Shown: positions 4,366 to 20,423, counted from the stretch's first letter. The stretch is 38,551 nt of DNA from an uncultured Erysipelotrichaceae bacterium (GCA_902782835.1 CACZOQ010000011.1:1-38551), one strand, 5' to 3'. Made by a program: numbers and translations. Notes: generated by a model not told the origin, from the letters alone.

Positions 4366-4388
4366 TAACAGTTTAAGGGGGAAATGGA

Positions 4389-5540
4389 ATGAATACAAAA
4401 ACAAGAAATTCCAATTATGAATTAATGAGAATCATTTCTATGTTTTTAATCGTTCTTTATCATGTGATTTTTCATGGCAAAGTAAAAGAAAACTGTACGA
4501 GTTTAGGAGTAAAAGAAATATTTACTTTTATTGAAATGTTAACAATTGTACATGTTAATTCTTTTGTACTTGTGTCAGGTTATTTTCAAAGCACTTCAAC
4601 TTGGAAACAAAGTAAACTATGGAAATTGATTATACCAATTATTTTCTATAGTATATTAATATTAGTACTAGTACTTGCATTTGGTGTTGTTCCATTTGAT
4701 AAAAATGGTATTATAAAAGAACTTTTTCCTCTAGAATTAATATGGGGAAGTTATTGGTTTATGAAGTACTATATTGCCCTTTACTGTTTATCCCCATTTA
4801 TAAATCAAGGAATAAAAAACTTTTCCAAACAACAATTTCAAAGATTATTAGTCATTTTAACTATACTATTCTCAATTTTACCTTTTTTAACAGGGCAAAA
4901 AGCTTTTGATAATACTGGTTATTCCTTATATCAATTTATCTATTTATATTTAATAGGGGCTTATCTTAGAAAATATCCAATAGAGAATAGTTATTTAGGA
5001 AGAAAGTTTTCCAATTCTTTCTTACAAATCATATTCATTGGAACAGCTTTTTTAAGTTTACTAGCAAATTATATTTTAGCAAAAGCAAGTTTTTCGTTAT
5101 TAGGAGTCAATGCAACTCTAGATTATTTTGCAATGAATATTTATAAGGCCAAAGAATGGTATAGTAATCCATTTGTTTTAATCCAAAGTATTTCATATTT
5201 CTGTTTTTTTAAAACATTAAATATCAATAGTAAAATCATTAATAAATTAGGAAGTTTAACAATAGGAATATATCTAATTCATGACAATCATTTTATTAGA
5301 GATTATTTGTATTACTGGACAAAAATCAATAGAGAAAATATAGGTTCCTATCAATTTATTCTATATGTTATAGGAATAGCCATTCTAATTTACATAGTAT
5401 CTTCTATCATAGAATGGATACGACAACTTATTTTTCATTTTATAGGAAATCGAAAAATAAGTAAAAAAATACGGAATAAATATTATGACTGGATTCATAG
5501 TATTTATATAATAAAAAATAGTGGAGGTAATAGTGTATGA
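4389..5540 (+). CDS. Acyltransferase-3 family membrane O-acyltransferase
   Basis: RNSNYELMRIISMFLIVLYH, FVLVSGYF, YWFM..Y and GIYLIH motifs; about 10 TM helices. Confidence 0.85.
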   Translation: MNTKTRNSNYELMRIISMFLIVLYHVIFHGKVKENCTSLGVKEIFTFIEMLTIVHVNSFVLVSGYFQSTSTWKQSKLWKLIIPIIFYSILILVLVLAFGVVPFDKNGIIKELFPLELIWGSYWFMKYYIALYCLSPFINQGIKNFSKQQFQRLLVILTILFSILPFLTGQKAFDNTGYSLYQFIYLYLIGAYLRKYPIENSYLGRKFSNSFLQIIFIGTAFLSLLANYILAKASFSLLGVNATLDYFAMNIYKAKEWYSNPFVLIQSISYFCFFKTLNINSKIINKLGSLTIGIYLIHDNHFIRDYLYYWTKINRENIGSYQFILYVIGIAILIYIVSSIIEWIRQLIFHFIGNRKISKKIRNKYYDWIHSIYIIKNSGGNSV

Positions 5541-6484
5541 AAAATACAAAAAAAATAGCAGTATTAATTCCCTGCTATAACGAATCAAAAACAGTAGAAA
5601 AGGTAGTAAAAGATTATAAGAAAGTTTTACCAGAAGCGGATATTTATGTATATGATAATAATTCAACAGACGGTACCGATAAAATTGCTAAAAAGGCAGG
5701 GGCTATTGTTCGCTATGAGTATAAACAAGGAAAAGGAAATGTTATTCGTTCCATGTTTAAAGAAATTGATGCAGATTGTTATTTAATGATTGATGGAGAT
5801 GATACATATCCAAAAGAAAATGCTCGAGAAATGTGCGACTTAATTTTAGAGAAGAAAGCAGATATGGTAATAGGAGATCGTCTTTCTTCTACCTATTTTC
5901 AAGAAAATAAGAGACCTTTCCATAACTTTGGAAATAAACTAGTAAGAGGATTAATTAACACATTATTTAAGAGTAATGTAAAAGATATTATGACTGGATA
6001 TAGAGCGTTCAGTTATGAGTTTGTAAAGACATTTCCAGTCTTATCAAAGGGATTTGAAATTGAAACAGAAATGACGATTCATGCATTAGATAAAAATTTC
6101 TTATTAAAAGAAATACCAGTAGAGTACCGTGATAGACCAGCTGGAAGTGAATCAAAATTAAATACGGTAAGAGATGGTATGAGAGTATTAAAAACGATTG
6201 CTCGACTATTTAAAGAGTATAAACCAATGATTTTCTTTGGCTTAATTAGCTTATTATTCTTTATTATTTCATTAATATTTGGAGTTCCAGTTTTTGTAGA
6301 ATATTTCCAAACAGGTAGAGTTCCAAGATTTCCTACATTGATATTCTCTGGATTTATTTTAATGATTTCAATGCTAAGCCTAATTTGTGGAATCCTATTA
6401 GAAGTAGTCGTAAAAAAACACCGTCAATTATTTGAGTTGTTCTTGATAAGGAGTTATAAAAATGATGGAAAAGATACTAAATAG
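5537..6484 (+). CDS. GT2 polyprenyl-phosphate glycosyltransferase (DPM1/GtrB-like)
   Basis: IPCYNE, DNNSTD, QGKG, DGDDTY, DIMTGYRAF and GFEIETE motifs; two C-terminal TM helices. Confidence 0.88.
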   Translation: MKNTKKIAVLIPCYNESKTVEKVVKDYKKVLPEADIYVYDNNSTDGTDKIAKKAGAIVRYEYKQGKGNVIRSMFKEIDADCYLMIDGDDTYPKENAREMCDLILEKKADMVIGDRLSSTYFQENKRPFHNFGNKLVRGLINTLFKSNVKDIMTGYRAFSYEFVKTFPVLSKGFEIETEMTIHALDKNFLLKEIPVEYRDRPAGSESKLNTVRDGMRVLKTIARLFKEYKPMIFFGLISLLFFIISLIFGVPVFVEYFQTGRVPRFPTLIFSGFILMISMLSLICGILLEVVVKKHRQLFELFLIRSYKNDGKDTK

Positions 6485-8606
6485 GAAAGATATTAAATAT
6501 TTAGTAGTTATACTGATATACTTTTTATTCATTTATAAATTGGAAATCAATGTATTTGATACATATTCATGGGTATTGTTCTTATTTATGATAATGGGCT
6601 GTCAAAAACTAACGCTTTATCAAAAACATTACTTTTCTATGAGTGTTTTATTATCAATTATTTTTTCAGTATTATTAGTATATGGTAGTGCCGCCAAAAG
6701 GGTATTATTTGAAAAGACGCTTACATTATCATCCGTCTTTTTTACCGTACCTAAATTTATCATGATTCTTCTAACATTTATCATGTTTTATAGTTTACTA
6801 ATCAATATCTTTAGTATATTAGATAAACTAACACTATTTGAACGAAGAAAAGAAGTAACCAGTAAAAAGATATGGGTAGGGGTAAGTATTTTTTCCATAG
6901 TTGCGAGAATTCCATATTTTCTAGCTTTATATCCAGGTGTTTTAACACCAGACTCTATTTATGAATACAACATGATTACCGGAATATCTAAGACACTAAG
7001 TAATCATCATCCTCTGATTCATGTTTTATTTACATATCTGCCTTATAAACTAGGAATGATTTTATTTCATAATGTAAATGCTGCAGTTGCAACCGCAACA
7101 TTCACTCAAATAGTAGTAACCAGTATCATCATAGGTTACATTATTCAATTTTTATATAAAAAAGGAGTAAAAAAATTCTATATCATATTAGTATTCCTTT
7201 TCTATACTTTATTACCACTACATAGTTATTACAGTGTAACTGTTTGGAAGGATGTAATGTTCTCTTACATTTTAGTGTTATTATTACTAAAAATATATGA
7301 TTTATATACCAAGTATTTTAATCGAGAAGATTTAACCAAAAAAGATATGATTTCTTTTGTTCTTATCTCAATCATATTTGTACTATTTCGAAATAATGCA
7401 ATCTATGCATATGCATTCTTCGGAGTCATAATGGTATTATGCTTCCATAAACAAAAGAAGTTAATGATTTCTTCGTTATTAATCGTAATAGGAGTATATT
7501 TAATCATAATGATTCCAATCTATAATATGATGGGAGTTAAAAGGTCATCATCATCTGAATATATAGCTATCCCTCTACAACAAATTGGTAGAATGACCTA
7601 TAAAAACACAAAATTTACTAAAAAAGAGAAAAAACAAATATCAAAACTATTACCAATCAAAACTATGGAAGAATCATACATTCCTCAAAACGTTGATAAA
7701 TTAAAATTTCATAAAGAATTTCAACAAGACGAATTTGACAAGAATAAAATGGAATATTTACAATTATGGATGAGTTTAGTTTTAAAACATCCTGATACAG
7801 CAGTTGAATCCTATAGTATATCAACATTAGGATATTGGTATCCTAGTTTACAAGAATGGAATACAGAAAGAGGAGTATATAAGAACAAATCAGGAATTAA
7901 ACATACTCCATTAGGAATCAAAGAAGTTAATAATGTTTTATTAAAAGGAGATAACTTATTCCAAAAAATAGGAATAATAAATATCTTTTTATCGGTAGGT
8001 GCAGGTTTTTGGATATCACTTGTTCTAATGACCTATAGTATGAAGAAAAGAAAAGAAAGAATACTATTCTTTGCCCCATTAATAGGAATATGGATTACGA
8101 TGATGATAGCATCTCCAACATATGGAGAATTTCGTTATATTTATTCTGTGTATTTAGCACTACCAATATTATTTTTAGTACCATTTATAAAAACAGAGAA
8201 AAGGGTGGAACAAATTCAAATGGAAAAAAGCAATTTAATGATGCAAATACTAAAATTTGGTGTTGTAGGTGGGACAGCATTTGTAATTGATTATGGAGTA
8301 TTAATATTCTGTAAAGAATTTCTTCATTTTAATACAATTATCTCAACATTCTTAGGATTCACTATATCAGTCATCTATAACTATATTGCTAGTGTTAAAT
8401 GGGTTTTTGATGTAAATAAAGAGAATAGTAAGAAAAAGAATTTTATTCTATTTATTGTCTTTAGTATTATTGGATTAATCTTAACAGAAGTAATTATGTT
8501 TACAGGTGCTGACTTATTAAAATTTGAATATAAATTAGTAAAAATATTTGCCACCGCAATAGTAATGGTATTTAACTTTGTAACGAGAAAAATATTCTTA
8601 GAGTAA
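6462..8606 (+). CDS. DUF6020-like GT-C membrane protein fused to a C-terminal GtrA flippase domain
   Basis: Same motifs as 2635..4365. The last ~125 aa (QILKFGVVGGTAFVIDYG...NYIASVKWVF...FNFVTRKIFLE) are a typical 4-TM GtrA domain. Confidence 0.8.
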   Translation: MMEKILNRKDIKYLVVILIYFLFIYKLEINVFDTYSWVLFLFMIMGCQKLTLYQKHYFSMSVLLSIIFSVLLVYGSAAKRVLFEKTLTLSSVFFTVPKFIMILLTFIMFYSLLINIFSILDKLTLFERRKEVTSKKIWVGVSIFSIVARIPYFLALYPGVLTPDSIYEYNMITGISKTLSNHHPLIHVLFTYLPYKLGMILFHNVNAAVATATFTQIVVTSIIIGYIIQFLYKKGVKKFYIILVFLFYTLLPLHSYYSVTVWKDVMFSYILVLLLLKIYDLYTKYFNREDLTKKDMISFVLISIIFVLFRNNAIYAYAFFGVIMVLCFHKQKKLMISSLLIVIGVYLIIMIPIYNMMGVKRSSSSEYIAIPLQQIGRMTYKNTKFTKKEKKQISKLLPIKTMEESYIPQNVDKLKFHKEFQQDEFDKNKMEYLQLWMSLVLKHPDTAVESYSISTLGYWYPSLQEWNTERGVYKNKSGIKHTPLGIKEVNNVLLKGDNLFQKIGIINIFLSVGAGFWISLVLMTYSMKKRKERILFFAPLIGIWITMMIASPTYGEFRYIYSVYLALPILFLVPFIKTEKRVEQIQMEKSNLMMQILKFGVVGGTAFVIDYGVLIFCKEFLHFNTIISTFLGFTISVIYNYIASVKWVFDVNKENSKKKNFILFIVFSIIGLILTEVIMFTGADLLKFEYKLVKIFATAIVMVFNFVTRKIFLE

Positions 8607-8618
8607 GGAGATCATTAT

Positions 8619-9473
8619 ATGGATTATATAAAATTAATGAGACCAAAACATTATATTAAAAATTTATTAGTATTTTTACCTTTAATCTTTAGTGGATTAT
8701 TAACAAATCAAGCTTATCTAATCCAAACAATTATTGGGTATATTGCTTTCTGCTTAACAGCTAGTACCATTTATATAATGAATGATATTCGAGATAAAGA
8801 AAAAGATAAAAAACATACAAAAAAGAAAAATAGACCAATCGCATCTGGAAGAGTACCAGTCAAGAATGCAATAATTTTAATTGTTGTTTTATTAATTGCA
8901 GTAACTCTAATTCTTTATTTTTCAAAAATAAATATGACAGCCATAATCTTTTTAGTAACATATTTTGTCATTAATATTGGTTATAGTTTTGGATTGAAAA
9001 ATGTTCCATTAGTAGATATTGCAATTATTGTTGCAGGCTTCGTAATTCGTGTTCTATATGGAGGAGCAATAAACAATATAGAAACCTCTAACTGGTTGTA
9101 TCTAACAATCATTACCCTTTCTTTTTACTTAGCATTAGGAAAAAGAAGAAACGAAATTTCAAAAGAAGGAAAAAAGGCTAGAAAAGTATTAAAATATTAT
9201 ACTCAAGAATTCTTAGATAAAAATATGTATATGTTTTTATCAATGGCTATAGTATTCTATTCTCTTTGGGCTACATCAACAGAAATGGTAATAAAATCTC
9301 ATAATCGTCTAATTATTACGATACCAATTATAATGCTATTATGTATGCGTTATAGTATGAATATAGAAGATAATAGTGATGGAGATCCTACAGAAGTTAT
9401 TATAAAAGATAAAGTAATATTAGGACTAGGAACTTTATTAGGAATAGGATTAATTGTTATTTTATATGGATAG
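8619..9473 (+). CDS. UbiA-family polyprenyl-phosphate phosphoribosyltransferase (DPPR synthase-like)
   Basis: MRPKHYIKN, YIMNDIRD, NRPIASG, YSFGLKN, GFVIRV, LGKRRNE and GDPTE motifs typical of the Rv3806c-like subfamily. Confidence 0.88.
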   Translation: MDYIKLMRPKHYIKNLLVFLPLIFSGLLTNQAYLIQTIIGYIAFCLTASTIYIMNDIRDKEKDKKHTKKKNRPIASGRVPVKNAIILIVVLLIAVTLILYFSKINMTAIIFLVTYFVINIGYSFGLKNVPLVDIAIIVAGFVIRVLYGGAINNIETSNWLYLTIITLSFYLALGKRRNEISKEGKKARKVLKYYTQEFLDKNMYMFLSMAIVFYSLWATSTEMVIKSHNRLIITIPIIMLLCMRYSMNIEDNSDGDPTEVIIKDKVILGLGTLLGIGLIVILYG

Positions 9474-9481
9474 GAGGAAAT

Positions 9482-11113
9482 ATGAAAGTATTAAGTAAAA
9501 AACAAGAAGTATTATTAAAAATAATCTTATGCATATCCATTCCATTCTTTACGATATTATTATCCAATCGATACCAAAAATCCCATATTTTAATTGGTAG
9601 TATTATAGCTTTTATGATTGGAATAATCATAATGAAAAAAATAAAAATAGAGAAAATCAATACAAAATCATTCATTGCTTCTCTCTTTTTCAGTTCTCTT
9701 ACAATAAAAGAATGGTTAGTAGCTTCTGCCGATGTACAAAATAATATTAGTCTTCTTATCAGAATACAAGAAATGCTTTTTCATCGTACATTTTCTTTTA
9801 CAACTACAATGAATTTATTAGGAATAATGGCCTTTCCATTTGCGGTTTTGCTCATTACAATATGGATTGATAAAATGGTAATACCAGGATATCAGTTTTT
9901 AAAAGAGTTATCCAAAACAGAAAAAAGTTACTTACTAATCATGACGATCATTGGAGTGATTCTAAGTATTGGAATTACAAGATATACAACTGCTTTTTCA
10001 AAACCATTCGCTAATAATCAATTACATATCTATGATGTAATCTATACATCAGATTCTGGAGCACTATCCTATGAAAATACGTTTATTGATGCGAGTTATG
10101 AAGAAAATGATATAAGACAACCTATATTTGGAATTATGTCTCTACCATTTTCAATTCCAGCTCTGTTTATTAGTAAATTCTTATTCTTTGTCCAAGATAA
10201 TTTTACGTTCGAAGTATCGATAACAATATTTCAATTTATTTTAACAACCATTACTACAATCTTAATTGCCAGAATGTTAAGTTTAGAAGACAAAGATAAA
10301 AAATATTTATATTTATTATTTAGTTGTAGTTTTCCTTATATGATTTTTAATTTAATCATTGAACAATATGTAATAGCTTTATTCTATGTAATTGTTACAA
10401 TCTATATTCATTATAATAATCCAAATCGATTGAATTATTCCTACATAGGAGCAGTTGGTACATTAATAACATCAGGAATATTATTTCCAATGATTACCAA
10501 ATTTCATTCTGCAAAACAATGGATAAAAGATGTTGGAAAAGTCTTTCTAGCTTTTTGTTCAACATTAATCATTGGAGGACAATTTCCTCAAGTATTACTA
10601 GCGTTTAGACGAATGAAATTTTTATTAAATTCATTTGCGAAAAAAGTAACATTTCCAGAAAAAATCATTCAATATACGAATTTTGTAAAAGGTATATTTT
10701 TTGCAAATACTGGAAATGTAAAAGTAATTAATAAACATTTTTCCTATCAAACAATCGACTTTCAAAAAGCTAGTATAATAGGAATCATAATATTAGGAAT
10801 CATCTTTATTAGTTATCTAATGAATCATCGAAATAAAATGGCTAGATTATCATTCTTATGGGTACTTTTCTCAATAATCATTTTAGTAATTGTAGGATGG
10901 GGTACTGCTGAAAATGGCTTAATTCTATATAGTTTATACTTTGGTTGGGCTTTTCTAATTCTTTATTTCTTATTTTGTTATAAAATTGGAAAAGGGACAA
11001 AGATCTATAAACTGTCAATTATTGTAACATGTATAGGAATGTTAATCGTAAATAGTCAAGAAATGATCAAAATATTAAAATTTGCATTAGAATATTTTAA
11101 GGTGATTCTATGA
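9482..11113 (+). CDS. Polytopic membrane protein, possible GT-C glycosyltransferase
   Basis: About 13 hydrophobic segments and an acidic external loop (DVIYTSDSG...ENDIRQP). Located between the UbiA and HAD genes. Function is inferred from context. Confidence 0.5.
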   Translation: MKVLSKKQEVLLKIILCISIPFFTILLSNRYQKSHILIGSIIAFMIGIIIMKKIKIEKINTKSFIASLFFSSLTIKEWLVASADVQNNISLLIRIQEMLFHRTFSFTTTMNLLGIMAFPFAVLLITIWIDKMVIPGYQFLKELSKTEKSYLLIMTIIGVILSIGITRYTTAFSKPFANNQLHIYDVIYTSDSGALSYENTFIDASYEENDIRQPIFGIMSLPFSIPALFISKFLFFVQDNFTFEVSITIFQFILTTITTILIARMLSLEDKDKKYLYLLFSCSFPYMIFNLIIEQYVIALFYVIVTIYIHYNNPNRLNYSYIGAVGTLITSGILFPMITKFHSAKQWIKDVGKVFLAFCSTLIIGGQFPQVLLAFRRMKFLLNSFAKKVTFPEKIIQYTNFVKGIFFANTGNVKVINKHFSYQTIDFQKASIIGIIILGIIFISYLMNHRNKMARLSFLWVLFSIIILVIVGWGTAENGLILYSLYFGWAFLILYFLFCYKIGKGTKIYKLSIIVTCIGMLIVNSQEMIKILKFALEYFKVIL

Positions 11114-11673
11114 AAATAAACATATATGATTTTGATGGGACTATTTATCATGGAGACTCTTCCATAGATTTTTATAAGTTCTGTATCCATAAAAAGAAAA
11201 AGAATATCTGGAATGTATTTCCAGTAATTGGAAATTATTGCTTATATTTTTTTAAAATAAGAACAAAGACACAAGTAAAAGAAGTGTTCTTTCAATTTTT
11301 AAAAGACATGGATTCCATAGAGGATTTAGTTGAGGAGTTTTGGCAAGAAAATCAAAATAAAATAAAAAAATTCTACAAAAAAAAGAATCATAAACAAGAT
11401 ATTATTATTTCAGCTTCTCCAGAATTCTTATTAAAACCAATCTGTAAACAATTAAAAGTAAAAGATTTGATTGCTAGTAAAGTTGATTCTAAGACCGGTA
11501 AGTTTTTAGAAGATAACTGTAAAGGAGAAGAAAAAGTAAAAAGATTATATCAAAAATATCCAAAAGCAGAAGTAATGGAAGTATATACGGATAGTAAAAG
11601 TGATTTTCCATTAATCGATATCAGTAAAAATGGATATTTTGTTAAAGAAAATGAAATAACAAAAGTAAAATAA
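11110..11673 (+). CDS. HAD-IB family phosphatase
   Basis: Motif I DFDGT, motif II ISASP, motif III CKGEEK, motif IV TDSKSD. ATGA-coupled to the upstream gene. Confidence 0.88.
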   Translation: MKINIYDFDGTIYHGDSSIDFYKFCIHKKKKNIWNVFPVIGNYCLYFFKIRTKTQVKEVFFQFLKDMDSIEDLVEEFWQENQNKIKKFYKKKNHKQDIIISASPEFLLKPICKQLKVKDLIASKVDSKTGKFLEDNCKGEEKVKRLYQKYPKAEVMEVYTDSKSDFPLIDISKNGYFVKENEITKVK

Positions 11674-11696
11674 GAAAGGGATTCCTTTCTTTTTTT
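11672..11696 (+). terminator. Intrinsic terminator ending the glycan operon
   Basis: AAGAAAGG-GATT-CCTTTCTT followed by a T run. Confidence 0.8.
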
Positions 11697-11718
11697 GACT
11701 AGTATTTTTATAAATAAA

Positions 11719-11727
11719 TGATATAAT
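11719..11727 (+). promoter_or_regulatory. Extended -10 sigma-A promoter
   Basis: TGATATAAT upstream of an AAGGAGG RBS and the ATG at 11763. Confidence 0.65.
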
Positions 11728-11762
11728 AAAGCTAGTTAAAGGGGAAAAAGGAGGCTATTATT

Positions 11763-12683
11763 ATGAAAAAATGTACAATAATAATGAATCCAGAGAGTGG
11801 TAAAAAGAAAAAGATTAAAACGTATGAAGAATTTTATGATATTTTAAGAAAATATGGATATGATACAGAAATCATTCTTACCAAAGCAAAAGGGGATGCT
11901 GAAAGAATCATTCAATCATTAGATAATGATGTTGATTTGGTAGTAAGTGGTGGTGGGGATGGAACCCTAAATGAAATTGTTACTGGAAATATGAAACGTC
12001 AAAAAAAACTAATCATAGCTCCACTTCCATTAGGAAGTACCAATGATGTAGGAACAATGTATGGACTTAACAAAAGTGTATATGAGAATCTAGAAATACT
12101 TCTACAAGGAAAAGCCAAAAAAGTAGATATTTGTTATATTAATGATAATCCATTCGTCTATGTAGCTTGCTTAGGAGATTATATCGACATGGCATATAAT
12201 ACTCCACGTAGTTTAAAAAAGAAATATGGCAAAGTAGCTTATCTATTATATGGACTAAGCAAATTTCGTCTTAAAATAAACAATTATAATATTAAATATA
12301 AAATTAATAATGAAGAGTTTTTTGGAACCTATTCATTTATCTTTATATCAAACTCTTCTAGAATAGCAGGTCAACCAGATGTATATTATGATGTAAAGTT
12401 AGATGATAATCGTTTTGAAGTAGCTTTAGCGAATGTAAAGAATTATCGAGAGCTATCAAGACTTTTAGTATTAATCAGTACCGTAGATGTAAAAAACATA
12501 CCAAATGTTACATACTATCAAACTAATCACTTTGAAATTGATTTCTTATCTCCATTAAAATCCTCTTGGTGTATAGATGGAGAAGAATATAAGACAGAAT
12601 CAACTCATTTTGAATTTCGTGTCGAGCAAGGAATGAAAATGTTAATTCCAGAAAAGAGTATAAACAAATTATTTGAAGAATAA
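11763..12683 (+). CDS. Diacylglycerol/lipid kinase, YegS/DagK/BmrU family
   Basis: NPESG, GGGDGTLNE, PLGSTND and IDGE motifs. Confidence 0.9.
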   Translation: MKKCTIIMNPESGKKKKIKTYEEFYDILRKYGYDTEIILTKAKGDAERIIQSLDNDVDLVVSGGGDGTLNEIVTGNMKRQKKLIIAPLPLGSTNDVGTMYGLNKSVYENLEILLQGKAKKVDICYINDNPFVYVACLGDYIDMAYNTPRSLKKKYGKVAYLLYGLSKFRLKINNYNIKYKINNEEFFGTYSFIFISNSSRIAGQPDVYYDVKLDDNRFEVALANVKNYRELSRLLVLISTVDVKNIPNVTYYQTNHFEIDFLSPLKSSWCIDGEEYKTESTHFEFRVEQGMKMLIPEKSINKLFEE

Positions 12684-12700
12684 AAAATAGGGGGAATATT

Positions 12701-13390
12701 ATGAAAAAGAATCATAGTGAAAAACGGCTAATCATAAAAATGTTTCTATGTATCATATACTTAATCATAATAACCTTACTATCTGTTTGTACGTATCATT
12801 TATATCAAAAAGATAATCAAATACTACCATGGTCTGAAGTAAAAGGTACCAAAGATTACTCTTATATGAATATCTCAAAAATGTCAGAAAAGTTTGCGTA
12901 TTATAAAGAACAAGACATTGGAATCCATTTTATCATAGAAGAAGAAGATACTGGTCAGTGGCATACATTTTTAATTGCAATTAAAGAATCTAAGATAGAT
13001 TTATTTCAAGAAATAATTGATTATACCTATGAAAAGACAGAAAAGAGACCAACCCCTATCAAAGTATATGGTTATCCTGTTATCATGAGTCAAGAAATCA
13101 AAGAATTAGCAATAAAAAATATTAATCATTTCATACCTGCAGAAAATGAAGTACAAATAACAGAAGAAAACTTTGAAAGATACTTAACAAATAGTTATTT
13201 AGACACAACCAAGCCAAAAATAAAAAATGTAGACATTCAATTCAGTCTATCTGTATCTTTCTTAATCATTACCATTATTTTACTATTACTAACAATCATC
13301 AATAAAGATAAGATTGTTGATAGTATTATGAATAAAATGGAAAAGGAAAGTATACGTATAAAAAGGAAAAGAAACTACCATAAAAAGTAG
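12701..13390 (+). CDS. Hypothetical membrane protein (two TM helices flanking an external domain)
   Basis: GGGGA RBS; hydrophobic N- and C-terminal helices; no recognised family. Confidence 0.7.
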   Translation: MKKNHSEKRLIIKMFLCIIYLIIITLLSVCTYHLYQKDNQILPWSEVKGTKDYSYMNISKMSEKFAYYKEQDIGIHFIIEEEDTGQWHTFLIAIKESKIDLFQEIIDYTYEKTEKRPTPIKVYGYPVIMSQEIKELAIKNINHFIPAENEVQITEENFERYLTNSYLDTTKPKIKNVDIQFSLSVSFLIITIILLLLTIINKDKIVDSIMNKMEKESIRIKRKRNYHKK

Positions 13391-13399
13391 TTTCTTTTT
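13367..13399 (+). terminator. Intrinsic terminator
   Basis: AAAAGAAACTAC-N8-GTAGTTTCTTTTT, overlapping the stop codon. Confidence 0.75.
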
Positions 13400-13407
13400 A
13401 GATTAAA

Positions 13408-13416
13408 TGGTATAAT
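13408..13416 (+). promoter_or_regulatory. Extended -10 promoter
   Basis: TGGTATAAT about 20 nt upstream of the ATG at 13436. Confidence 0.65.
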
Positions 13417-13435
13417 ATATTTTATAGGATAGAAT

Positions 13436-15763
13436 ATGAAAAAGAGAATCATAAAGACAAATCGTAAAAAAAGAAAAATGATGTTAAGTATAGGCTTAGC
13501 AGTTTTTCTGTTTTTAGGAATTGGTTATTCTACCCTAAGCACGAACTTAAATTTAAATGGAAATATAAAGGTCAAAGAACATGATTATACAATGTATGGC
13601 ATTTTAAGAAAAGCATATAATAATAACGCAGCAAGTCAATACACTCTTGGTAGTAAAGACACAATGACCGGAACACATGATAAACCTGTCTATTATTGGA
13701 AAAATCTAAATGATATAGAAAATAAAATTAATGTTATATTTGGAGACAAATGTTGGCAATTGATGCGAACAACCGATACCGGTGGTGTCAAATTATTATT
13801 TAATGGAAATGTAGAAAATGGAAAATGTTTAAACACTAGAGGAACTCATATAGGATATAATGACTCTTCTGTAATATCTATGGTTTCTAATGCCTATTAT
13901 GGTACTGATTACATATACGACCCTGAAACATCTAAGTTTTCCTTATCAGGAAATCTAGTACAATCTAACTGGAATGAGAGCACATCTTCAGATTTGATAG
14001 GACATTATAGTTGCAACTCAACATCAGATACTGCTACTTGTTCAACTTTATACTCTATGTATGCATATTCAAGTCCATCATCTAGTAGTAATAATAAAAC
14101 AGCAGCTGTTTTAAACATAACCTCAGCAGCAGATTATGATTCAATAGGTAATTTGCCACTTAATTATAATGTCCACTTGAATGGTGAATCATTAGCGAGT
14201 GTGAGTTATATGTTTAATGAATACTACCCAGATACAAGAATTAATATGGAAGGTTACATGGAAATCTCTTCTATGTATTCTATCTTTAGTTATTCTTCAA
14301 AAACTACTATTACAGAAGACAAATGGTTCGCAGATTCAGTATCATATTCAAACCGTTACTATGCATTAGATTCCCCATATCATGTATCTACTGATGTTGA
14401 TCCTACTACAGTAATTGGAAAGTATTTTGCAACAAGCACAAATGGATTATACACTGTAAGTTACATAATTGGTTATGATGGAGAAAGATTAATAACAGTT
14501 ACGATGTCAAACGGAAAAACAATTAGTGATTATGAACCAATAATTGTTGGAGATTCATATACAGATAATGGAGATGGTACATATACTCTACAAAATACCA
14601 ATACTTTATCATTTGTAGAATGGTATAATGATATATATTTTGGTAAATATACCTGTGGGATTAATAAAACAGCATGTGAAAAACCTATGCGTATCGTAAG
14701 TACGCATGATGGAACTAAATTCAGTTATGTTGGATTCCAAGACTCTTTTACTTTGGGAAAGGGAAGAAATAATCTTACTTTAACTGATACAATCACTCTA
14801 AGCACATTTGATCTTATTGCTAATAATACTGCTTACGATGAATACAAATATTTATGCAAGTCTGGAAAAGCCATCTGTGAAAATGCTTCTGATTTAATAA
14901 TGGCCTACCAAGGCTATAACGAAATTACAACCAATGATTATTATAAAGATATCAAGTTTATTAAAAACTATACGTTTGGAAAAAGTGTTACCTGGGATGG
15001 AACAAAGTATACATTAAAAGACACAGTAGGAATGGAATCATATAATAACAATAGTATTATTTCCAATCACCACTTCACATGTAAAGATACAAGTGGAACA
15101 GAATGCGAAAATGTAACATATCTATACTATAGCATGGGTAGTTCTTTCTATTCTTTTGAATTATCAAATGGAAAAACTGGTCCCGATGATATAATCTATG
15201 AAACATTACAACATAATGTTAAAGATTCTGTTTCTAAATATGGAATAGAAAAGTGGTATGAAAGAGAAATGCTAGAATATGACAGCTATTTAGAAAAAGC
15301 CATATTTATTAATAGCAAATATATTAAAAATAGAGCAGGTCTTAATCCAAATGGTTCTGGCGACGATATAAGAGACGTCATTCGCTTTTCATCATTCAAC
15401 GGATCGTCTAGTCCTATTGGTTCACTTTATACAAATTCTAATACTGAAGCTTATAGTGTTGAAAATAGTGAAGCAAGATTAAAGTATTCTATAGGATTAC
15501 CTTCATATAGAGAACTGAGCTTAATGCCATCAACACTAAGACCGAATTATCCAAAAATCTTAACTGCCTCACCATGGGACTATAATAATGGTGAAAGAAT
15601 TATTCTAATGAATTCAACATATACATTATCATATTATTCAGCTGGACAGGCAGCTAGAGTTAGACCTGTTATCTCATTAAAACCAGGAACAACATATACT
15701 TCTGGTACAGGATCACAAGAAGCCCCATATATAGTGGATGCACCACCAATAAACCAACCATAA
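13436..15763 (+). CDS. Large secreted/surface protein with Cys-pair repeats and a DUF6273-like C-terminus
   Basis: Basic N-terminus plus hydrophobic helix; S/T/Y/N-rich; 10 Cys; ends RVRPVISLKPG...GTGSQEAPY. Confidence 0.7.
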   Translation: MKKRIIKTNRKKRKMMLSIGLAVFLFLGIGYSTLSTNLNLNGNIKVKEHDYTMYGILRKAYNNNAASQYTLGSKDTMTGTHDKPVYYWKNLNDIENKINVIFGDKCWQLMRTTDTGGVKLLFNGNVENGKCLNTRGTHIGYNDSSVISMVSNAYYGTDYIYDPETSKFSLSGNLVQSNWNESTSSDLIGHYSCNSTSDTATCSTLYSMYAYSSPSSSSNNKTAAVLNITSAADYDSIGNLPLNYNVHLNGESLASVSYMFNEYYPDTRINMEGYMEISSMYSIFSYSSKTTITEDKWFADSVSYSNRYYALDSPYHVSTDVDPTTVIGKYFATSTNGLYTVSYIIGYDGERLITVTMSNGKTISDYEPIIVGDSYTDNGDGTYTLQNTNTLSFVEWYNDIYFGKYTCGINKTACEKPMRIVSTHDGTKFSYVGFQDSFTLGKGRNNLTLTDTITLSTFDLIANNTAYDEYKYLCKSGKAICENASDLIMAYQGYNEITTNDYYKDIKFIKNYTFGKSVTWDGTKYTLKDTVGMESYNNNSIISNHHFTCKDTSGTECENVTYLYYSMGSSFYSFELSNGKTGPDDIIYETLQHNVKDSVSKYGIEKWYEREMLEYDSYLEKAIFINSKYIKNRAGLNPNGSGDDIRDVIRFSSFNGSSSPIGSLYTNSNTEAYSVENSEARLKYSIGLPSYRELSLMPSTLRPNYPKILTASPWDYNNGERIILMNSTYTLSYYSAGQAARVRPVISLKPGTTYTSGTGSQEAPYIVDAPPINQP

Positions 15764-15802: not shown

Positions 15803-17035
15803 ATGGAATTTACGGAAATAACAGAAAAAGAATATACAAAGTTTTGGGAGAATCATCCCCTTAAAACATTTTTATCGGCTCCTGAAATATCAAAACTAAG
15901 AGAAAAAAGTGGTTGGACTACCTATTATGTTGGAGTAAAAGATAAAAAAAGACTAGTTGCAGCAACGATGCTTTTAGCCCATCCAAGACATTTTCATAAA
16001 TATGAATTTTATTCACCAAGGGGCTATTTATTAGACTTTGAAAATAAAGAGTTAGTAACGTTCTTTACCGAAGAATTAAAAAAATATATAAAAGAAAAAA
16101 AAGGGTATATATTTCGAGTAGATCCCTATCTTATTTATAAAGAAAGGGATATTGATGGTAATATAGTAGAAAATGGAATTGACCATTCTGATATAGTAGA
16201 ACATTTAAAGTCTTTAGGTTTTAAAAAGGTACCAACTCCTCAAATGGAACAAGTAGGTTGGATGTTTTCACTAGGTTTAGATGGAAAAACAGAAGAACAA
16301 ATTTTAAAAGAAATGAAACCGAATACAAGAAATACCATTCGGAAAGCAGAGAAGTTTGGAATTACTGTGAATGAAATCACTTATGATGAATTAGATCGGT
16401 TTCAAAGTATCATGGAAGAAACTTCAAAACGAAAAGGTTTTTCCAATCGTAAACTATCTTATTATCAAGAAATGTATAAATTATTTCATGATAAAGAAGA
16501 AGTTAAATTCTTTATTACGGAATTAAATCTAAAAGAATATATTCATCGCCTAGAAGAAGAGAAGAAAGAAAAAGAAGAAAAAATTAAGAGTTTAAGTGAT
16601 GCGAAATACAATGAAGGGGCCAAAAAGAATTTAACCAATGAAATAGAATCCATTAATAAAAGAATACAAGAGTCAGAAGAAATCATAAAAGAAAAAAATA
16701 CCGATATTATTACCTTATCAGGATCCATGTTTATGTTAATACAACCTGAAGTAATCTATCTTTCTAGTGGAAACTATGAAGAATTTATGAAGTTTAATTC
16801 ACAATATTTAATACAATGGGAATTAATAAAATATGGAATTGAAAAAGGTTTTAAAAAACATAATTTTTATGGAATACCAGAAAACATTAATGAACATCCT
16901 AAAGATTATGGAATTTATGAATTTAAAAGAGGGTTTAATGGCTATGTAGAAGAATTAATAGGAGAATATGAACTTCCTATTACATGGCATTTTCAATTAA
17001 TAAAAATGATTCATAAAATGAAAGGAGAAAAATAA
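15803..17035 (+). CDS. FemABX/MurMN peptidoglycan interpeptide-bridge aminoacyltransferase
   Basis: YSPRGYLLDF, FRVDPY, a coiled-coil insert, HNFYGI and GIYEFKRGFNG..ELIGEY. Start moved to the ATG at 15803, after GAGGTG. Confidence 0.9.
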   Translation: MEFTEITEKEYTKFWENHPLKTFLSAPEISKLREKSGWTTYYVGVKDKKRLVAATMLLAHPRHFHKYEFYSPRGYLLDFENKELVTFFTEELKKYIKEKKGYIFRVDPYLIYKERDIDGNIVENGIDHSDIVEHLKSLGFKKVPTPQMEQVGWMFSLGLDGKTEEQILKEMKPNTRNTIRKAEKFGITVNEITYDELDRFQSIMEETSKRKGFSNRKLSYYQEMYKLFHDKEEVKFFITELNLKEYIHRLEEEKKEKEEKIKSLSDAKYNEGAKKNLTNEIESINKRIQESEEIIKEKNTDIITLSGSMFMLIQPEVIYLSSGNYEEFMKFNSQYLIQWELIKYGIEKGFKKHNFYGIPENINEHPKDYGIYEFKRGFNGYVEELIGEYELPITWHFQLIKMIHKMKGEK

Positions 17036-17281
17036 ATGCATAAGACATATAAGACAAAGGGAACATGTTCTGTACAAATAGATTATGATATAGAAGATAA
17101 TAAAATCCATAATGTACAATTTTTAGGTGGTTGTAATGGAAATCTAAAAGGAATAGCAGCCTTAGTAGAAGGGCAAAACAAAGAGGAAGTAATTCAAAAA
17201 CTAAAAGGGATTAAATGTGGATTTAAACTAACATCTTGCCCAGATCAATTAGCCAAAGCTTTAGAAGAGAGTAATGAATAA
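17036..17281 (+). CDS. TIGR03905 family TSCPD-domain protein
   Basis: YKTKGTCS, GGCNGNLKGI and CG..TSCPDQLA motifs. Confidence 0.9.
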   Translation: MHKTYKTKGTCSVQIDYDIEDNKIHNVQFLGGCNGNLKGIAALVEGQNKEEVIQKLKGIKCGFKLTSCPDQLAKALEESNE

Positions 17282-17308
17282 CTCCCTTTTTTAGTGAAAA
17301 AATAAAAC

Positions 17309-17337
17309 TTGCTTTTTTTCGTAAAATAGAGTATTCT
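17309..17337 (+). promoter_or_regulatory. Sigma-A promoter for the leader-permease-upp transcript
   Basis: TTGCTT-17 bp-TATTCT. Confidence 0.6.
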
Positions 17338-17357
17338 CATATTAAGGGTGTGAGAGT

Positions 17358-17444
17358 ATGAGTATGAAAGAAGTATTTAAAATGACTATTCAAAATACAA
17401 AAGCTGTTTCTTTCTTATTCGTATTATCAGCTATTTCTTTATAA
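17358..17444 (+). CDS. Putative 28-aa leader peptide MSMKEVFKMTIQNTKAVSFLFVLSAISL
   Basis: AAGGGTG RBS-like sequence before the ATG; T-rich 3' half; stop codon 3 nt before an attenuator-like hairpin. Confidence 0.55.
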   Translation: MSMKEVFKMTIQNTKAVSFLFVLSAISL

Positions 17445-17447
17445 TTC

Positions 17448-17485
17448 AAAAAGAAGGTATTTTATTGGAAATTCCTTCTTTTTTT
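17448..17485 (+). terminator. Leader terminator (attenuator) upstream of the uracil permease
   Basis: AAAAAGAAGG (17448-57) pairs with CCTTCTTTTT (17474-83), with an extended inner stem and a 7-T tract. Confidence 0.75.
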
Positions 17486-17519
17486 GTAGAGAAAACCCTA
17501 TTTGAGAGGAGTGAATAAA

Positions 17520-18962
17520 ATGAATAGTCGCAAGTTAGCATACGATATTGAGGAGATGCCACCTTTAAAAGAATCCATCATCTTAGCATTTCAGCATCTA
17601 TTTGCTATGTTTGGTGCTACTATCTTAGTACCAATTCTAGTAAATGCTGCAGCTGGAAAAGAAGTATTAACGATTCCAGTTGCCTTAGTAACATCTGGTA
17701 TTGGAACACTTATCTATATTCTATGCACAAAAGGAAAATCGCCTGTTTATCTAGGAAGTTCCTTTGCCTTTATTGTTCCAATTGCCGCCGCTTATACAAA
17801 AGCTGGAATTGCAGGAGCAATGACTGGTATTATGGCCGTAGGTTTAATCTACATCATAGTAGCCATTATTATTAAATTTGCAGGAAAGGATTGGTTGGAA
17901 AAATTACTACCACCAGTTGTCATAGGACCAATGATTATGATAATTGGTTTAGGATTAGCTCCATCTGCTATTAATCAAATAGGTTTAGCAAGCGGAACCA
18001 GTCTTGATTGGAAAATCATTTTAGTAGCATTTATTTCCTTTATTGTTACTGCAATTGTAATGACAAAAGCAAAAGGATTTCTTCGTATAATTCCTTTCTT
18101 AGTAGGAATTGTTGTAGGATACATAGTAGCTGTTTGCTTAGGCATGATTGATTTTAAGACAGTGGGGGAAGCTACTTGGTTTAGCGTTCCAAAATTTAAA
18201 ATCTTATGGAAAGATTATCAATTAAATTTCACAGCTTTAATGACAATTGCCCCAATCGCCTTAGTAACACTATGTGAACATATAGGAGATCACACATCAT
18301 TAAGTAATATTATAGGAAGAGATTTAATCAAAGAACCAGGATTAGATCGTACTTTATTAGGAGATGGACTTGCAACATTTGTTGCTGGATTTTTAGGAGG
18401 ACCAGCTAATACAACATATGGAGAAAACACTTCCGTAGTAGGAATGACTAAAGTTGCCAGTGTTAAAGTAATTGGTTTAGCAGCCATCTTCGCCATAATT
18501 ATTGGATTTTTAGGAAAATTTACAGCCCTAGTATCTACGATTCCAAATGCAGTATTAGGAGGAGTATCCCTATTACTATATGGATTTATTGCTGTAAACG
18601 GTTTAAAAGTATTAATTAAAAATCAAGTTAATTTTGAAGAACCTAAAAATGTAATTGTAGCATCATCTATGTTAGTATTAGGATTAGGAGGTGCAGCTGT
18701 TTCTATTGTAAGTGGAGACTTATCATTGACCATTTCTGGTATGTCTTTAGCAGCAATCTTTGGTATCATTTTAAATTGTGTATTACCAGGGGAGAAAAAA
18801 CCAGTAGCAACTTTAATCAAAGAAGATACAAGATATGTAAAACAAGATATTAATAAATTAAAAGAAGATATTAAAGAAGAACTAACAGTAGAATTAAAAG
18901 AAGATATTGTTAAAATGATTCAAAAAGAAATGGATCATCCAAAAAAGAAGAACAAAAAGTAG
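17520..18962 (+). CDS. uraA: Uracil permease (NCS2/UraA-PyrP family)
   Basis: AFQHLFAMFGATILVP, YLGSSFAF, EHIGD, GPANTTYGEN and VLGGVS motifs. GAGGAG RBS before the ATG at 17520. Confidence 0.92.
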   Translation: MNSRKLAYDIEEMPPLKESIILAFQHLFAMFGATILVPILVNAAAGKEVLTIPVALVTSGIGTLIYILCTKGKSPVYLGSSFAFIVPIAAAYTKAGIAGAMTGIMAVGLIYIIVAIIIKFAGKDWLEKLLPPVVIGPMIMIIGLGLAPSAINQIGLASGTSLDWKIILVAFISFIVTAIVMTKAKGFLRIIPFLVGIVVGYIVAVCLGMIDFKTVGEATWFSVPKFKILWKDYQLNFTALMTIAPIALVTLCEHIGDHTSLSNIIGRDLIKEPGLDRTLLGDGLATFVAGFLGGPANTTYGENTSVVGMTKVASVKVIGLAAIFAIIIGFLGKFTALVSTIPNAVLGGVSLLLYGFIAVNGLKVLIKNQVNFEEPKNVIVASSMLVLGLGGAAVSIVSGDLSLTISGMSLAAIFGIILNCVLPGEKKPVATLIKEDTRYVKQDINKLKEDIKEELTVELKEDIVKMIQKEMDHPKKKNKK

Positions 18963-18971
18963 GAGGACAAA

Positions 18972-19598
18972 ATGGAAGTTGTAGAATTAAATCATCCCTT
19001 AATAGAACATAAACTTGCCATATTAAGAGAGGAAAAAACAGGAACAAAAGAATTCCGAGAATTAATAAGTGAAATAGCAATGTTTCTATGCTATGAAGCA
19101 ATGAAAGATGTAAAACTAAAAAAAACAGTGATTAAAACCCCAATAGAAGAAATGACTACAGGGAAACTAGAAGAAGATAAATATGCATTTGTTCCAATAT
19201 TAAGAGCAGGAATGGGAATGCTAGATGGTGTAATAACCGTCGTTCCTAATGCCAAAATAGGTCATATTGGAATGTATCGTGATGAAACAACATTTGAACC
19301 AGTAAATTATTTCTTTAAAGTGCCAAAAGGAATTGAAAAAAGAGAAGTATTCTTATTAGATCCAATGCTAGCAACAGGAGGAAGTGCCTGTGATGCCATT
19401 GATTTGTTAAAGTCAAAAGGAGTAAAAAAGATTAATTTTCTTTGTATCATTTCGGCTCCTGAAGGCTTAAAAGCAGTATCGGAAAAACATCCGGATGTAA
19501 AGATATTTACAGCTCACATTGATCGAGAATTAAACAAGAATAAGTATATTTGTCCTGGATTAGGAGATGCAGGAGATCGTATTTTTGGAACAAAATAG
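18972..19598 (+). CDS. upp: Uracil phosphoribosyltransferase
   Basis: HPLIEHKL, VPILRAG, DPMLATGGS and PGLGDAGDRIFGTK motifs. Confidence 0.97.
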   Translation: MEVVELNHPLIEHKLAILREEKTGTKEFRELISEIAMFLCYEAMKDVKLKKTVIKTPIEEMTTGKLEEDKYAFVPILRAGMGMLDGVITVVPNAKIGHIGMYRDETTFEPVNYFFKVPKGIEKREVFLLDPMLATGGSACDAIDLLKSKGVKKINFLCIISAPEGLKAVSEKHPDVKIFTAHIDRELNKNKYICPGLGDAGDRIFGTK

Positions 19599-19649: not shown

Positions 19650-20423
19650 ATGAGAGCATCTATAAAAAATAAGATTATTGTTTTCTTAATAATAGGAGTC
19701 AACGCTAGTATAGGATTTTCTTTCATAATAGGGGGAGCGATTATGGCTATTCAAGAAAATATCCCTATATGGAAATACTTACTATCAATGTATCCTTTAC
19801 TAGCTTATGCTTTATTTTTTACAGGCATTCTTATCTATGCCATTATAAAAACAATAAAATATACTATATCTAAACCAGTAGAAGAAATCACGATTTGTAA
19901 AATGAATAAGGATAAATATTTATTTGTAAATCAAAAAAGGAAGCTTTATTCTAGTACGAGAACATTTAAAAAGAATATAGAAATCAATCAATATTATAAA
20001 ATTACTAGAAGAGATGATGAAATTATCAATATTGAAGAAACTACAGAGAAGATCCCTTTTAATGGAATAAAAGAAGGTTTTTGGACTACTTTTTATACTC
20101 CCAATGATATTTATAAAGATGTTGCATATCTGCCAATAATATATACGATAGCCGTTATGTTTCTACCATCTATTATCGCCATTCCTGTATTAGGAATTAT
20201 TGGTTATGACTTATATACTAAAATAAGAGTATCCAATCGTAAGAAAAAAATATTAAACGAAAACTATACATATGAAGATATAGAAAATATTGAAAGAAGT
20301 ATTCAAGGAGAAGATGCCCCTTTCTTTGAAAAAATATTCAAGTTCTATCAAAAACATCGACCTATCTTGATAATTCTTTTTATCGTTCTATTATGCTTAA
20401 TCTTCTATTTATTAGTGAAATAA
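19650..20423 (+). CDS. Hypothetical membrane protein
   Basis: GGTGA RBS, its own extended -10 and about 4 hydrophobic segments. Confidence 0.7.
   Translation: MRASIKNKIIVFLIIGVNASIGFSFIIGGAIMAIQENIPIWKYLLSMYPLLAYALFFTGILIYAIIKTIKYTISKPVEEITICKMNKDKYLFVNQKRKLYSSTRTFKKNIEINQYYKITRRDDEIINIEETTEKIPFNGIKEGFWTTFYTPNDIYKDVAYLPIIYTIAVMFLPSIIAIPVLGIIGYDLYTKIRVSNRKKKILNENYTYEDIENIERSIQGEDAPFFEKIFKFYQKHRPILIILFIVLLCLIFYLLVK

Follow-up and report, generated by a model that had tools for sequence, protein, structure and literature searches.

A putative UTP-sensing leader-ORF attenuator upstream of the uracil permease and upp genes in gut Bacilli lacking PyrR

Several pyrimidine operons of E. coli respond to UTP in the course of transcription itself. 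The pyrBI operon of E. coli and Salmonella, which encodes aspartate transcarbamoylase, is preceded by a short leader ORF, pyrL, with a U-rich stretch before an intrinsic terminator, and a close-following ribosome prevents the hairpin from forming while the peptide itself plays no role. The pyrL frame runs through the attenuator. Upstream of E. coli pyrE it is the frame of a full-length gene, rph, that ends shortly before the terminator, and the response to UTP goes through the speed of the polymerase. Control may also take place at initiation, by reiterative transcription or by the choice of start site, as for E. coli upp, codBA and pyrBI and for B. subtilis pyrG; at E. coli upp-uraA and codBA, UTP-sensitive start-site selection is combined with reiterative transcription at a T run, and no repressor takes part. 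For the pyrBI attenuator, Turnbough and Switzer are said to have set out in 2008 how UTP-sensitive pausing works together with ribosome coupling.

Gram-positive pyrimidine control is usually equated with PyrR, which acts on pyr, pyrP and upp genes of Bacillus and its relatives through an intrinsic terminator in the leader (Rfam family RF00515). Enteric pyrimidine control by UTP is described in reviews (excerpts of PMC6524683). According to passages in PMC2965389, attenuators that use leader peptides were for many years believed to be all but missing from the Firmicutes, and in 2010 a His leader was predicted for bacilli. Leaders that sense antibiotics, vmlR for instance, are also described as ribosome-mediated attenuators in Firmicutes. 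Our full-text search of the literature found no leader-peptide or UTP-sensing attenuator of pyrimidine genes in this phylum.

Here we describe a leader upstream of a uracil permease gene and upp which we consider very likely to be a leader-ORF attenuator. It was found in a window (the whole stretch of DNA that was analysed, 38,551 nt) from an uncultured Erysipelotrichaceae bacterium, the host assembly being 1.52 Mb long and 80% complete, and all features given below are on the plus strand. The region 17309-17519 holds, in this order, a promoter-like site, a Shine-Dalgarno (SD) sequence, an ORF of 28 codons, a terminator and the SD of the permease gene. Every element is found where a first-pass annotation of the same DNA had placed it; the permease ATG, which had been put at 17521, is at 17520. 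The promoter-like site (17309-17337) consists of the -35 hexamer TTGCTT (17309-17314), a T-rich spacer of 17 nt and the -10 hexamer TATTCT (17332-17337). With 7 of 12 positions matching the consensus the hexamers are weak, and the transcript is expected to start about 7 nt past the -10, just 5' of the leader SD AAGGGTG (17344-17350), which is located 7 nt 5' of the ATG. The genes 5' of the leader encode a FemAB-family protein and a TSCPD-domain protein as judged by Pfam.

The leader ORF (17358-17444) ends with a TAA stop codon, and its peptide, MSMKEVFKMTIQNTKAVSFLFVLSAISL, matched no Pfam family. Its head is A-rich, with 12 T and 24 A across the 47 nt of 17358-17404, while its tail is U-rich, with 22 U in the 36 nt of 17405-17440; the T counts are exactly as first reported. 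At least 22 T are reached in just 0.3% of all 36-nt segments on the same strand of the whole window. We propose this U-rich tract as a zone where RNA polymerase may be slowed in a UTP-sensitive manner, and it is also the 3' strand of a predicted helix with the start region; the first-pass annotation had pointed out the U-richness but not the helix. The inverted pair of AGCTG (17402) and CAGCT (17428) that it had reported within the ORF is present, but the pair is not conserved as such.

An intrinsic terminator follows at 17448-17485, with the stem-loop at 17448-17483, its G-C core at 17453-17478 and a T7 tract at 17479-17485. The fold of the stem-loop was predicted at -12.5 kcal/mol (z = -3.4), a value equalled by none of 200 shuffles. 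The hairpin had been described as starting 3 nt past the stop codon, which holds when A:U pairing with the T tract is included, but the G-C core begins 8 nt past the stop. It should be noted that a consensus scan for promoters and terminators listed neither the leader promoter nor the leader terminator, the latter because its stem is bulged and has too few G-C pairs for the scan rule; both elements were instead judged by folding and conservation. The permease-gene SD, GAGAGGAGTG, was read from the sequence at 17504-17513. The first gene under the proposed control is a uracil/xanthine-family permease of 480 aa (17520-18962; Pfam Xan_ur_permease, E 5.9e-94), and the uracil phosphoribosyltransferase gene upp (18972-19598; Pfam UPRTase, E 1.1e-77) starts 9 nt past its end, the two forming one operon.

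With the PyrR-controlled loci this one shares its genes and the leader intrinsic terminator, but PyrR and its binding loop are both absent. A regular expression for PyrR-box-like motifs found no match in 17200-17520 and no Rfam family came near its threshold in 16500-18200, which agrees with the first impression that no such loop is visible. When 16500-18200 was scanned by E-value against Rfam, only chance microRNA-like matches on the hairpin were returned, far under threshold. RF00515 gave no match in the window or in four same-genus loci, while L024, from a genome with PyrR, scored 56.7 bits, and a scan of 20 loci at the gathering thresholds returned only a tRNA and one PyrR site. No covariance-model match above threshold placed the leader (16500-18200; 20 loci) among the riboswitches or the curated cis-regulatory RNAs.

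A search for the pyrR gene, a check that the first-pass annotation had suggested, was negative for the own genome (80% complete) and for 24 others of the genus, the one match reaching 33 bits versus 94-139 bits for real PyrR. Searches for pyrF and Rho were negative in all 25 genomes, as were those for pyrB and CTP synthase in the own genome at its 80% completeness. The genus is one without PyrR, without de novo pyrimidine genes and without Rho. As pyrF is absent from the genus and pyrB from the own genome, uracil salvage is the route to UMP, and the organisms of the genus appear dependent on it. Five genomes reached via the leader loci gave no convincing pyrF (a match of 53 bits in G042 covered the profile only partly), and four of five further permease-leader genomes had no carbamoyltransferase, the fifth having an ornithine carbamoyltransferase beside arginine deiminase. 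Since no pyr operon was found alongside a permease leader, salvage and de novo leaders are not comparable within one genome.

Further we wanted to follow the leader among relatives. Permease orthologues with 73-89% identity were present in 18 of 24 sampled same-genus genomes, and the 17 orthologous loci with upstream DNA made up, together with the window, a set of 18 leaders. All 18 show the order promoter, SD, short ORF, U-rich end, terminator and permease. Hexamers of the types TTG(C/A).. and TAT(T/A)CT stand at a constant distance to the leader ATG in nearly all of them, and AAGGGTG or AGAAGGTG precedes the ATG in most, with variants in L008, L010, L017 and L018. The leader stop lies -2 to +5 nt from the stem base in 16 leaders and in the loop in the other two. 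For the wider set, a scan of one genome per species yielded 80 more loci, mostly from uncultured gut and rumen Bacilli; three were dropped as they had no upstream DNA, and after removal of duplicates there were 79 distinct leaders in total. The upp gene is found 3' of the permease in 16 of the 18 same-genus loci, the remaining two ending early, and in 69 of the 80 further loci.

A terminator together with an SD-preceded ORF of 23-44 codons (median 33) was detected by script in 73 of the 79 distinct leaders. The layout could be read by eye in four of the six that the script missed (L056, L095, L098 and L099), with the ORF reading through the terminator in L098 and L099, and was absent by eye in L072, a GC-rich Sarcina record, and in L110. 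In 50 of the 73 the stop codon ends -2 to +6 nt from the base that opens the stem, and in 23 it lies within the hairpin. The chance of an open frame of such length, given the composition, has a median of 0.05 per leader. A hairpin with a T tract is found at the equivalent place in 76 of 79 leaders (median terminator -11 kcal/mol), and as the stem sequences are entirely unlike between lineages, the hairpin is kept as a structure. The T tract is a median of 40 nt from the permease ATG, hence the operon is transcribed only by readthrough; a separate promoter after the terminator, which had been named as a finding that would speak against attenuation, has no room in this distance, SD included. The counts are drawn from related genomes and so are not independent.

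These leaders can be set beside the described systems. As for pyrBI and pyrE, a predicted frame with start signals precedes a pyrimidine-operon terminator (73 of 79 leaders), its stop is close enough to mask the 5' arm of the hairpin (50 near and 23 inside, of 73), and a U-rich tract lies before the terminator in the window but not in one distant genus. The differences from pyrBI are several: no sequence relation is seen, the phylum is another, and the genes controlled are those of a salvage operon, permease-upp, and not aspartate transcarbamoylase. Unlike pyrL, the window-type ORF usually stops at the hairpin foot; its U tract is also the predicted pairing partner of the translation start region, and no reiterative-transcription signal is seen at the leader start site. 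The pyrE frame likewise comes to its end a few nt short of the stem, where a ribosome blocks the terminator only if it follows closely, but the frame here is a dedicated leader of 23-44 codons with its own promoter. E. coli upp-uraA and codBA resemble the proposed system in placing uracil uptake and salvage under UTP without a repressor, but the window leader lacks their T run at the start site and has a terminator and a leader ORF. The His leader and vmlR of Firmicutes likewise have a short ORF, translated in those cases, before a downstream intrinsic terminator, but they work by codon runs and antibiotic arrest, whereas we find no codon run, no conserved arrest peptide, and pyrimidine genes downstream. 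Nor does the leader fall among classical attenuators of the trpL/hisL type, as there is no common codon run and the antiterminator-like helix has only about 6-7 bp, although a 1:2-like helix does exist. Descent from the enteric leaders is not indicated by any Rfam match, and leaders differ even between lineages of the class. Because it has no sequence similarity to the enteric leaders, the window system is, as far as sequences can tell, an analogue of the enteric attenuators and no homologue, and it has a putative start-site-closing helix in addition.

The leader peptides of the genus have a median pairwise identity of 23%, falling to 12% over the last 8 residues, versus 73-89% for the permeases. 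In L006 the tail nucleotides of the window are kept but in another frame. Across the 73 leaders U makes up a fraction of 0.47-0.65 over the 48 nt preceding the hairpin, versus 0.19-0.25 at 61-96 nt upstream of it, and 65 of the 73 have a tail with 50% U or more, compared with 8.5% of 434 ordinary terminator-like sites of the own genome. Codon use was computed for 66 leaders, as were the shuffles and chimeras below, L015, L055 and L101 being left out of these sets. The last 12 codons contain 57% U versus 30% in the remaining ORF, and U at codon positions 1, 2 and 3 of the tails amounts to 0.47, 0.62 and 0.62 as against 0.21, 0.44 and 0.38 in the adjacent permease genes. Synonymous codons ending with U were seen 490 times out of 747 where 395 were expected, and the serine codon TCT makes up 58% in tails versus 25%. 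A share of the U-richness is owed to hydrophobic codons, but the bias goes beyond what the amino acids need. As the peptide is unconserved and U is favoured even at synonymous sites, selection is on U content and on the end position of the frame, and the peptide sequence is not its target. The expectation raised by the first-pass annotation, that orthologous leaders keep the ORF and its U-richness but not the peptide, is borne out: the ORF is kept, it still ends at the terminator and its 3' part is U-rich, though U-richness is not universal in the distant examples. The other computable predictions of that annotation held as well. A share of the U-richness could also serve pairing with the purine-rich start region and not UTP sensing. 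Enrichment of the NusG-type pause motif TTNTTT was considered as support for pausing and dropped, as the tails hold 92 occurrences against 134 +/- 11 in shuffles.

Some observations would suit a leader peptide that responds to another signal, either by a ribosome stalled near the stop through a small molecule such as uracil or a nucleoside together with the nascent peptide, as in TnaC, or by reporting general translation capacity. In 31 of 73 leaders the spacer is -2, which puts the stop right at the foot of the hairpin, the last two bases of the stop codon being the first two of the stem. TAG is the stop codon in 31 of 73 leaders, and in 12 of 18 within the genus, versus 23% of the long ORFs in the own genome. 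In one distant mollicute-like genus the tails have 22-33% U and are not U-rich, and the last residues of the peptide are conserved (KP.II.NKFLTTK), and the two closest leaders found before pyrB (see below) have FPHFI in common. However, the excess of TAG is accounted for by the AG that opens the stem, the peptides of the window genus are unconserved down to their last residues, L006 has kept the nucleotides through a shift of frame, and a preference for U at synonymous sites is not required by a peptide sensor. We regard this alternative as unlikely, though it is the one that survives best.

The purine-rich SD and early codons of the leader are complementary to its U-rich tail. Folds of the leader ORF were compared with versions in which head and tail had been shuffled apart, giving a mean z of -2.07 with 80% of leaders below -1 (n = 66), and with native heads placed on foreign tails, giving a mean z of -1.49 with most same-genus leaders below -2. 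Around the start codon a median of 16 out of 32 nt is predicted to pair with the tail. As foreign U-rich tails pair almost as well (14.3 nt), the modelled pairing of start region and tail is largely compositional. The head-tail effect is weak in the longer leaders labelled Clostridia, which have a local hairpin 5' of the U tract instead. In the genus the SD and the 5' arm of the terminator are alike (AGAAGG), so that the tail and the 3' arm could exchange partners.

It might be that the start-tail helix is itself the functional element, for example as an anti-antiterminator or as the target of an RNA-binding factor, and that the ORF is incidental. The stability of the ORF region beyond its shuffles, the advantage of native head-tail pairs over chimeras and the possible exchange of partners in the genus are all compatible with such an RNA-only or protein-assisted attenuator. 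On the other hand, 73 of 79 leaders have held on to an SD, a start and a frame that always ends at the hairpin, in spite of indels and unrelated sequences and although the chance of an open frame is about 5% in each, no conserved sequence block for binding of a factor or ligand is visible across lineages, and no Rfam family matches. The alternative helix of tail and 5' arm is also short, about 6-7 bp by eye, versus a terminator with a median of -11 kcal/mol. This makes an attenuator with an incidental ORF rather improbable.

Very improbable, in our view, is that the ORF is a small membrane peptide gene in its own right, with a leaky terminator belonging to it and no part in regulation. The peptides do have a basic N-terminus and a hydrophobic C-terminus, and the loci labelled Clostridia encode about 40 residues with a hydrophobic stretch of about 22 and some conservation. 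Among the same-genus leaders, however, the median length of the uncharged C-terminal run is 13 residues, and only 6 of 18 have one of at least 18. The tails over-use Phe (17.7%) and Ser (13.8%) and are depleted in Gly and Ala, which are common in real membrane helices, and in this they are unlike the membrane helices of the permease. With an identity of 23% in the genus the peptide is not the conserved small membrane protein that had been named as an outcome against attenuation, and the overlap of stop and hairpin, with no promoter past the terminator, leaves readthrough as the only way to express the permease. The recurrence of the layout before pyrB also speaks against such a gene.

That UTP is sensed at initiation, by reiterative transcription or start-site choice, or that Rho terminates in the pyrimidine-rich tract, is hardly credible. 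A T run does lie between the -35 and -10 hexamers, and T-rich RNA adds to Rho targets in B. subtilis (passages of PMC13323073). Where the transcript is predicted to start, however, the sequence is rich in A and G (..TAAAAGAAGG, ..ATTAAGGG) and no T run follows the -10. The tract is C-poor with about 48 nt and 10% C, while an excess of C over more than 150 nt is required of Rho targets in B. subtilis (same passages), and the Rho-dependent reading was rejected since rho was not found in the genus (25/25).

The translating ribosome probably decides, by the supply of UTP, on the transcription of the uracil uptake and salvage genes in these PyrR-less gut bacteria, and for the full mechanism, a ribosome-dependent attenuator of permease-upp that reads the UTP pool, we lean towards acceptance with less assurance than for the attenuator as such. 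Transcription would begin a few bases 5' of the leader SD, and RNA polymerase would have to copy about 48 nt of 50-65% U directly before the intrinsic terminator. When UTP is plentiful the polymerase would cross the U tract fast, and the U-rich tail would then pair with the purine-rich start region and close the start site to ribosomes. Without a following ribosome the terminator hairpin would form, and transcription would stop short of the permease gene. Under UTP shortage the polymerase would linger on the U tract, and a ribosome would enter at the start site while this is still open. Having translated the 28 codons, the ribosome would arrive at the stop at the hairpin foot and cover the 5' arm, allowing the polymerase to read through into the permease gene and upp. 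The folding back of the tail on the start site would thus end the time window for ribosome loading at high UTP.

We infer the translation of the leader ORF, the UTP-dependent pausing of polymerase on the tract and the direction of the response. Passages of PMC4824070 report for E. coli that a terminator placed 5 nt past a stop codon falls in efficiency from about 90% to less than 10% in a translation-dependent manner, and that short leaders need polymerase pause sites so that the ribosome catches up, with a steep dependence on distance. As RNA polymerase outruns ribosomes in B. subtilis and its relatives (according to passages of PMC13323073), coupling on a leader of 130 nt needs a special pause. 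The leader lends itself to simple tests of how ribosome and polymerase are coupled in Firmicutes, whose polymerase is thought to outrun the ribosomes. It also suggests a design rule, in that a U tract doubling as an anti-start-site strand could sharpen such switches.

To see how the leader is distributed across the class we used an even sample of 150 genomes that were at least 90% complete, in which the PyrR scores were bimodal. A permease match at E <= 1e-70 was present in 88 of them, and the upstream DNA was compared between 40 PyrR-less genomes and the 20 with PyrR that scored best. Among the 40 PyrR-less ones, a terminator at which a leader ORF of 20 codons or more comes to its end was detected in 15 by script and in one more by eye (L162). 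Together with three of five PyrR-less genomes from a smaller sample this gives 19 of 45 outside the genus, in eight families, and 26 of 45 without the layout. None of 24 genomes with PyrR (the 20 best-scoring and four others) has the leader ORF. Thus PyrR and the leader ORF are mutually exclusive within the sample. PyrR boxes were detected in 11 of the 20 PyrR genomes by regular expression and in all four others by eye, one of these being confirmed by Rfam. Two script matches among the 20 PyrR genomes are TTG frames of 12 and 15 codons. G089, counted as PyrR-less, carries a PyrR box and has a sister genome with PyrR, hence its pyrR gene is probably unassembled.

It had further been suggested to align other pyr leaders. 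A like layout precedes pyrB in four of five genomes, from three genera, of a PyrR-less family (f3), while none was seen before pyrB in two other PyrR-less genomes (G032 and G034). The pyrB leaders of f3 have 30-37 codons and unrelated peptides, apart from the FPHFI of the two closest, with tails of 56-75% U and heads of 19-38% U, and the stop is located in the hairpin or 2 nt before it, followed by a T9 tract. Within the sample the layout is limited to PyrR-less lineages and to pyrimidine operons.

Uncultured gut and rumen Bacilli without PyrR or pyrimidine synthesis, a large group, appear to regulate their sole route to UMP by a device that was invented independently in E. coli. Further, we speculate, with less confidence than for the window itself and as a tentative idea that may well fail, that a class of nucleotide-sensing, ribosome-dependent attenuators has replaced PyrR at salvage and de novo operons of Rho-less gut Bacilli with reduced genomes. 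Such attenuators would work as a kinetic race, in which dwelling of the polymerase on the U tract at low UTP keeps the start open for one pioneering ribosome that masks the terminator, and the finished tract folds back and shuts the start. If true, this would mean that transcription and translation are coupled by design in lineages for which runaway transcription is regarded as normal.

For annotation, frames of 25-40 codons before salvage genes that are now left unannotated are better entered as leaders than as hypothetical proteins. The only other U-rich ORF-plus-hairpin in the own genome, on contig C62, was rejected as a pyrimidine leader; it encodes a Cys-rich peptide before radical-SAM enzymes and belongs to a peptide-modification cluster.

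We looked for the pyrimidine genes of the genus in the genome carrying the window (80% complete) and in 24 sampled same-genus relatives. pyrF was not found in any of these 25 genomes, nor were PyrR, the usual pyrimidine regulator of Bacilli, and Rho; de novo pyrimidine synthesis, PyrR and Rho thus appear to be absent from the genus. No CTP synthase was found in the window's own genome at its 80% completeness, and without this enzyme cytidine or cytosine would be required as well.

Among the stop codons of the leader ORFs preceding the permease, TAG is in excess. TAG ends 31 of the 73 leaders in which the script detected both a terminator and an ORF with a Shine-Dalgarno sequence, and 12 of 18 within the genus, compared with 23% of the long ORFs in the window's own genome. 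The excess is probably due to the AG that opens the terminator stem; but a slowly released stop would also prolong the masking of the hairpin by the ribosome.

In a mollicute-like genus where TGA is a sense codon (loci L028, L141, L143 and L145) the permease leader ORFs likewise stop at the terminator, the U content of their tails is only 22-33%, and they share a KP.II.NKFLTTK-like peptide end. This hints at a different sensing mode in these organisms, perhaps dependent on the peptide.

Two permease loci from different families, L123 (genome G065) and L153 (G077), have no leader of their own. The gene upstream, which by eye from its C-terminal sequence we take to encode a ribosomal protein S18-like product, has its stop codon adjoining a terminator, with the permease next, a geometry similar to that of rph-pyrE in E. 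coli. The pyrB leader of the PyrR-less genome G034 (locus L118, ~5120-5235) contains hairpins that compete with one another and a T9 tract. It has no ORF and may be a further pyrimidine-responsive RNA.

In five same-genus loci (L010, L012, L014, L015 and L025) the TTGAC that serves the leader promoter as its -35 element is also the 3' arm of the hairpin that terminates the gene upstream (GTCAAGAAAAG..CTTTTCTTGAC-like), hence termination of one unit overlaps initiation of the next.

Within the window, the long ORFs at 13436-15763 (775 aa) and 19650-20423 (257 aa) matched no Pfam family at E <= 0.001. Outside it, contig C62 of the same genome carries at 7440-15400 (locus L116, ~1940-8860) a cluster with a Cys-rich ORF of 41 codons, which ends ..SCFSSCFNFCGNNDFW and has its stop within a hairpin loop. 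The genes after it encode an alanyl-tRNA-synthetase-like protein that is truncated, a radical-SAM/SPASM enzyme and a dehydrogenase, and further two more radical-SAM enzymes, one of them B12-binding, and an S51 peptidase. The region resembles a gene cluster for a ribosomal peptide natural product.
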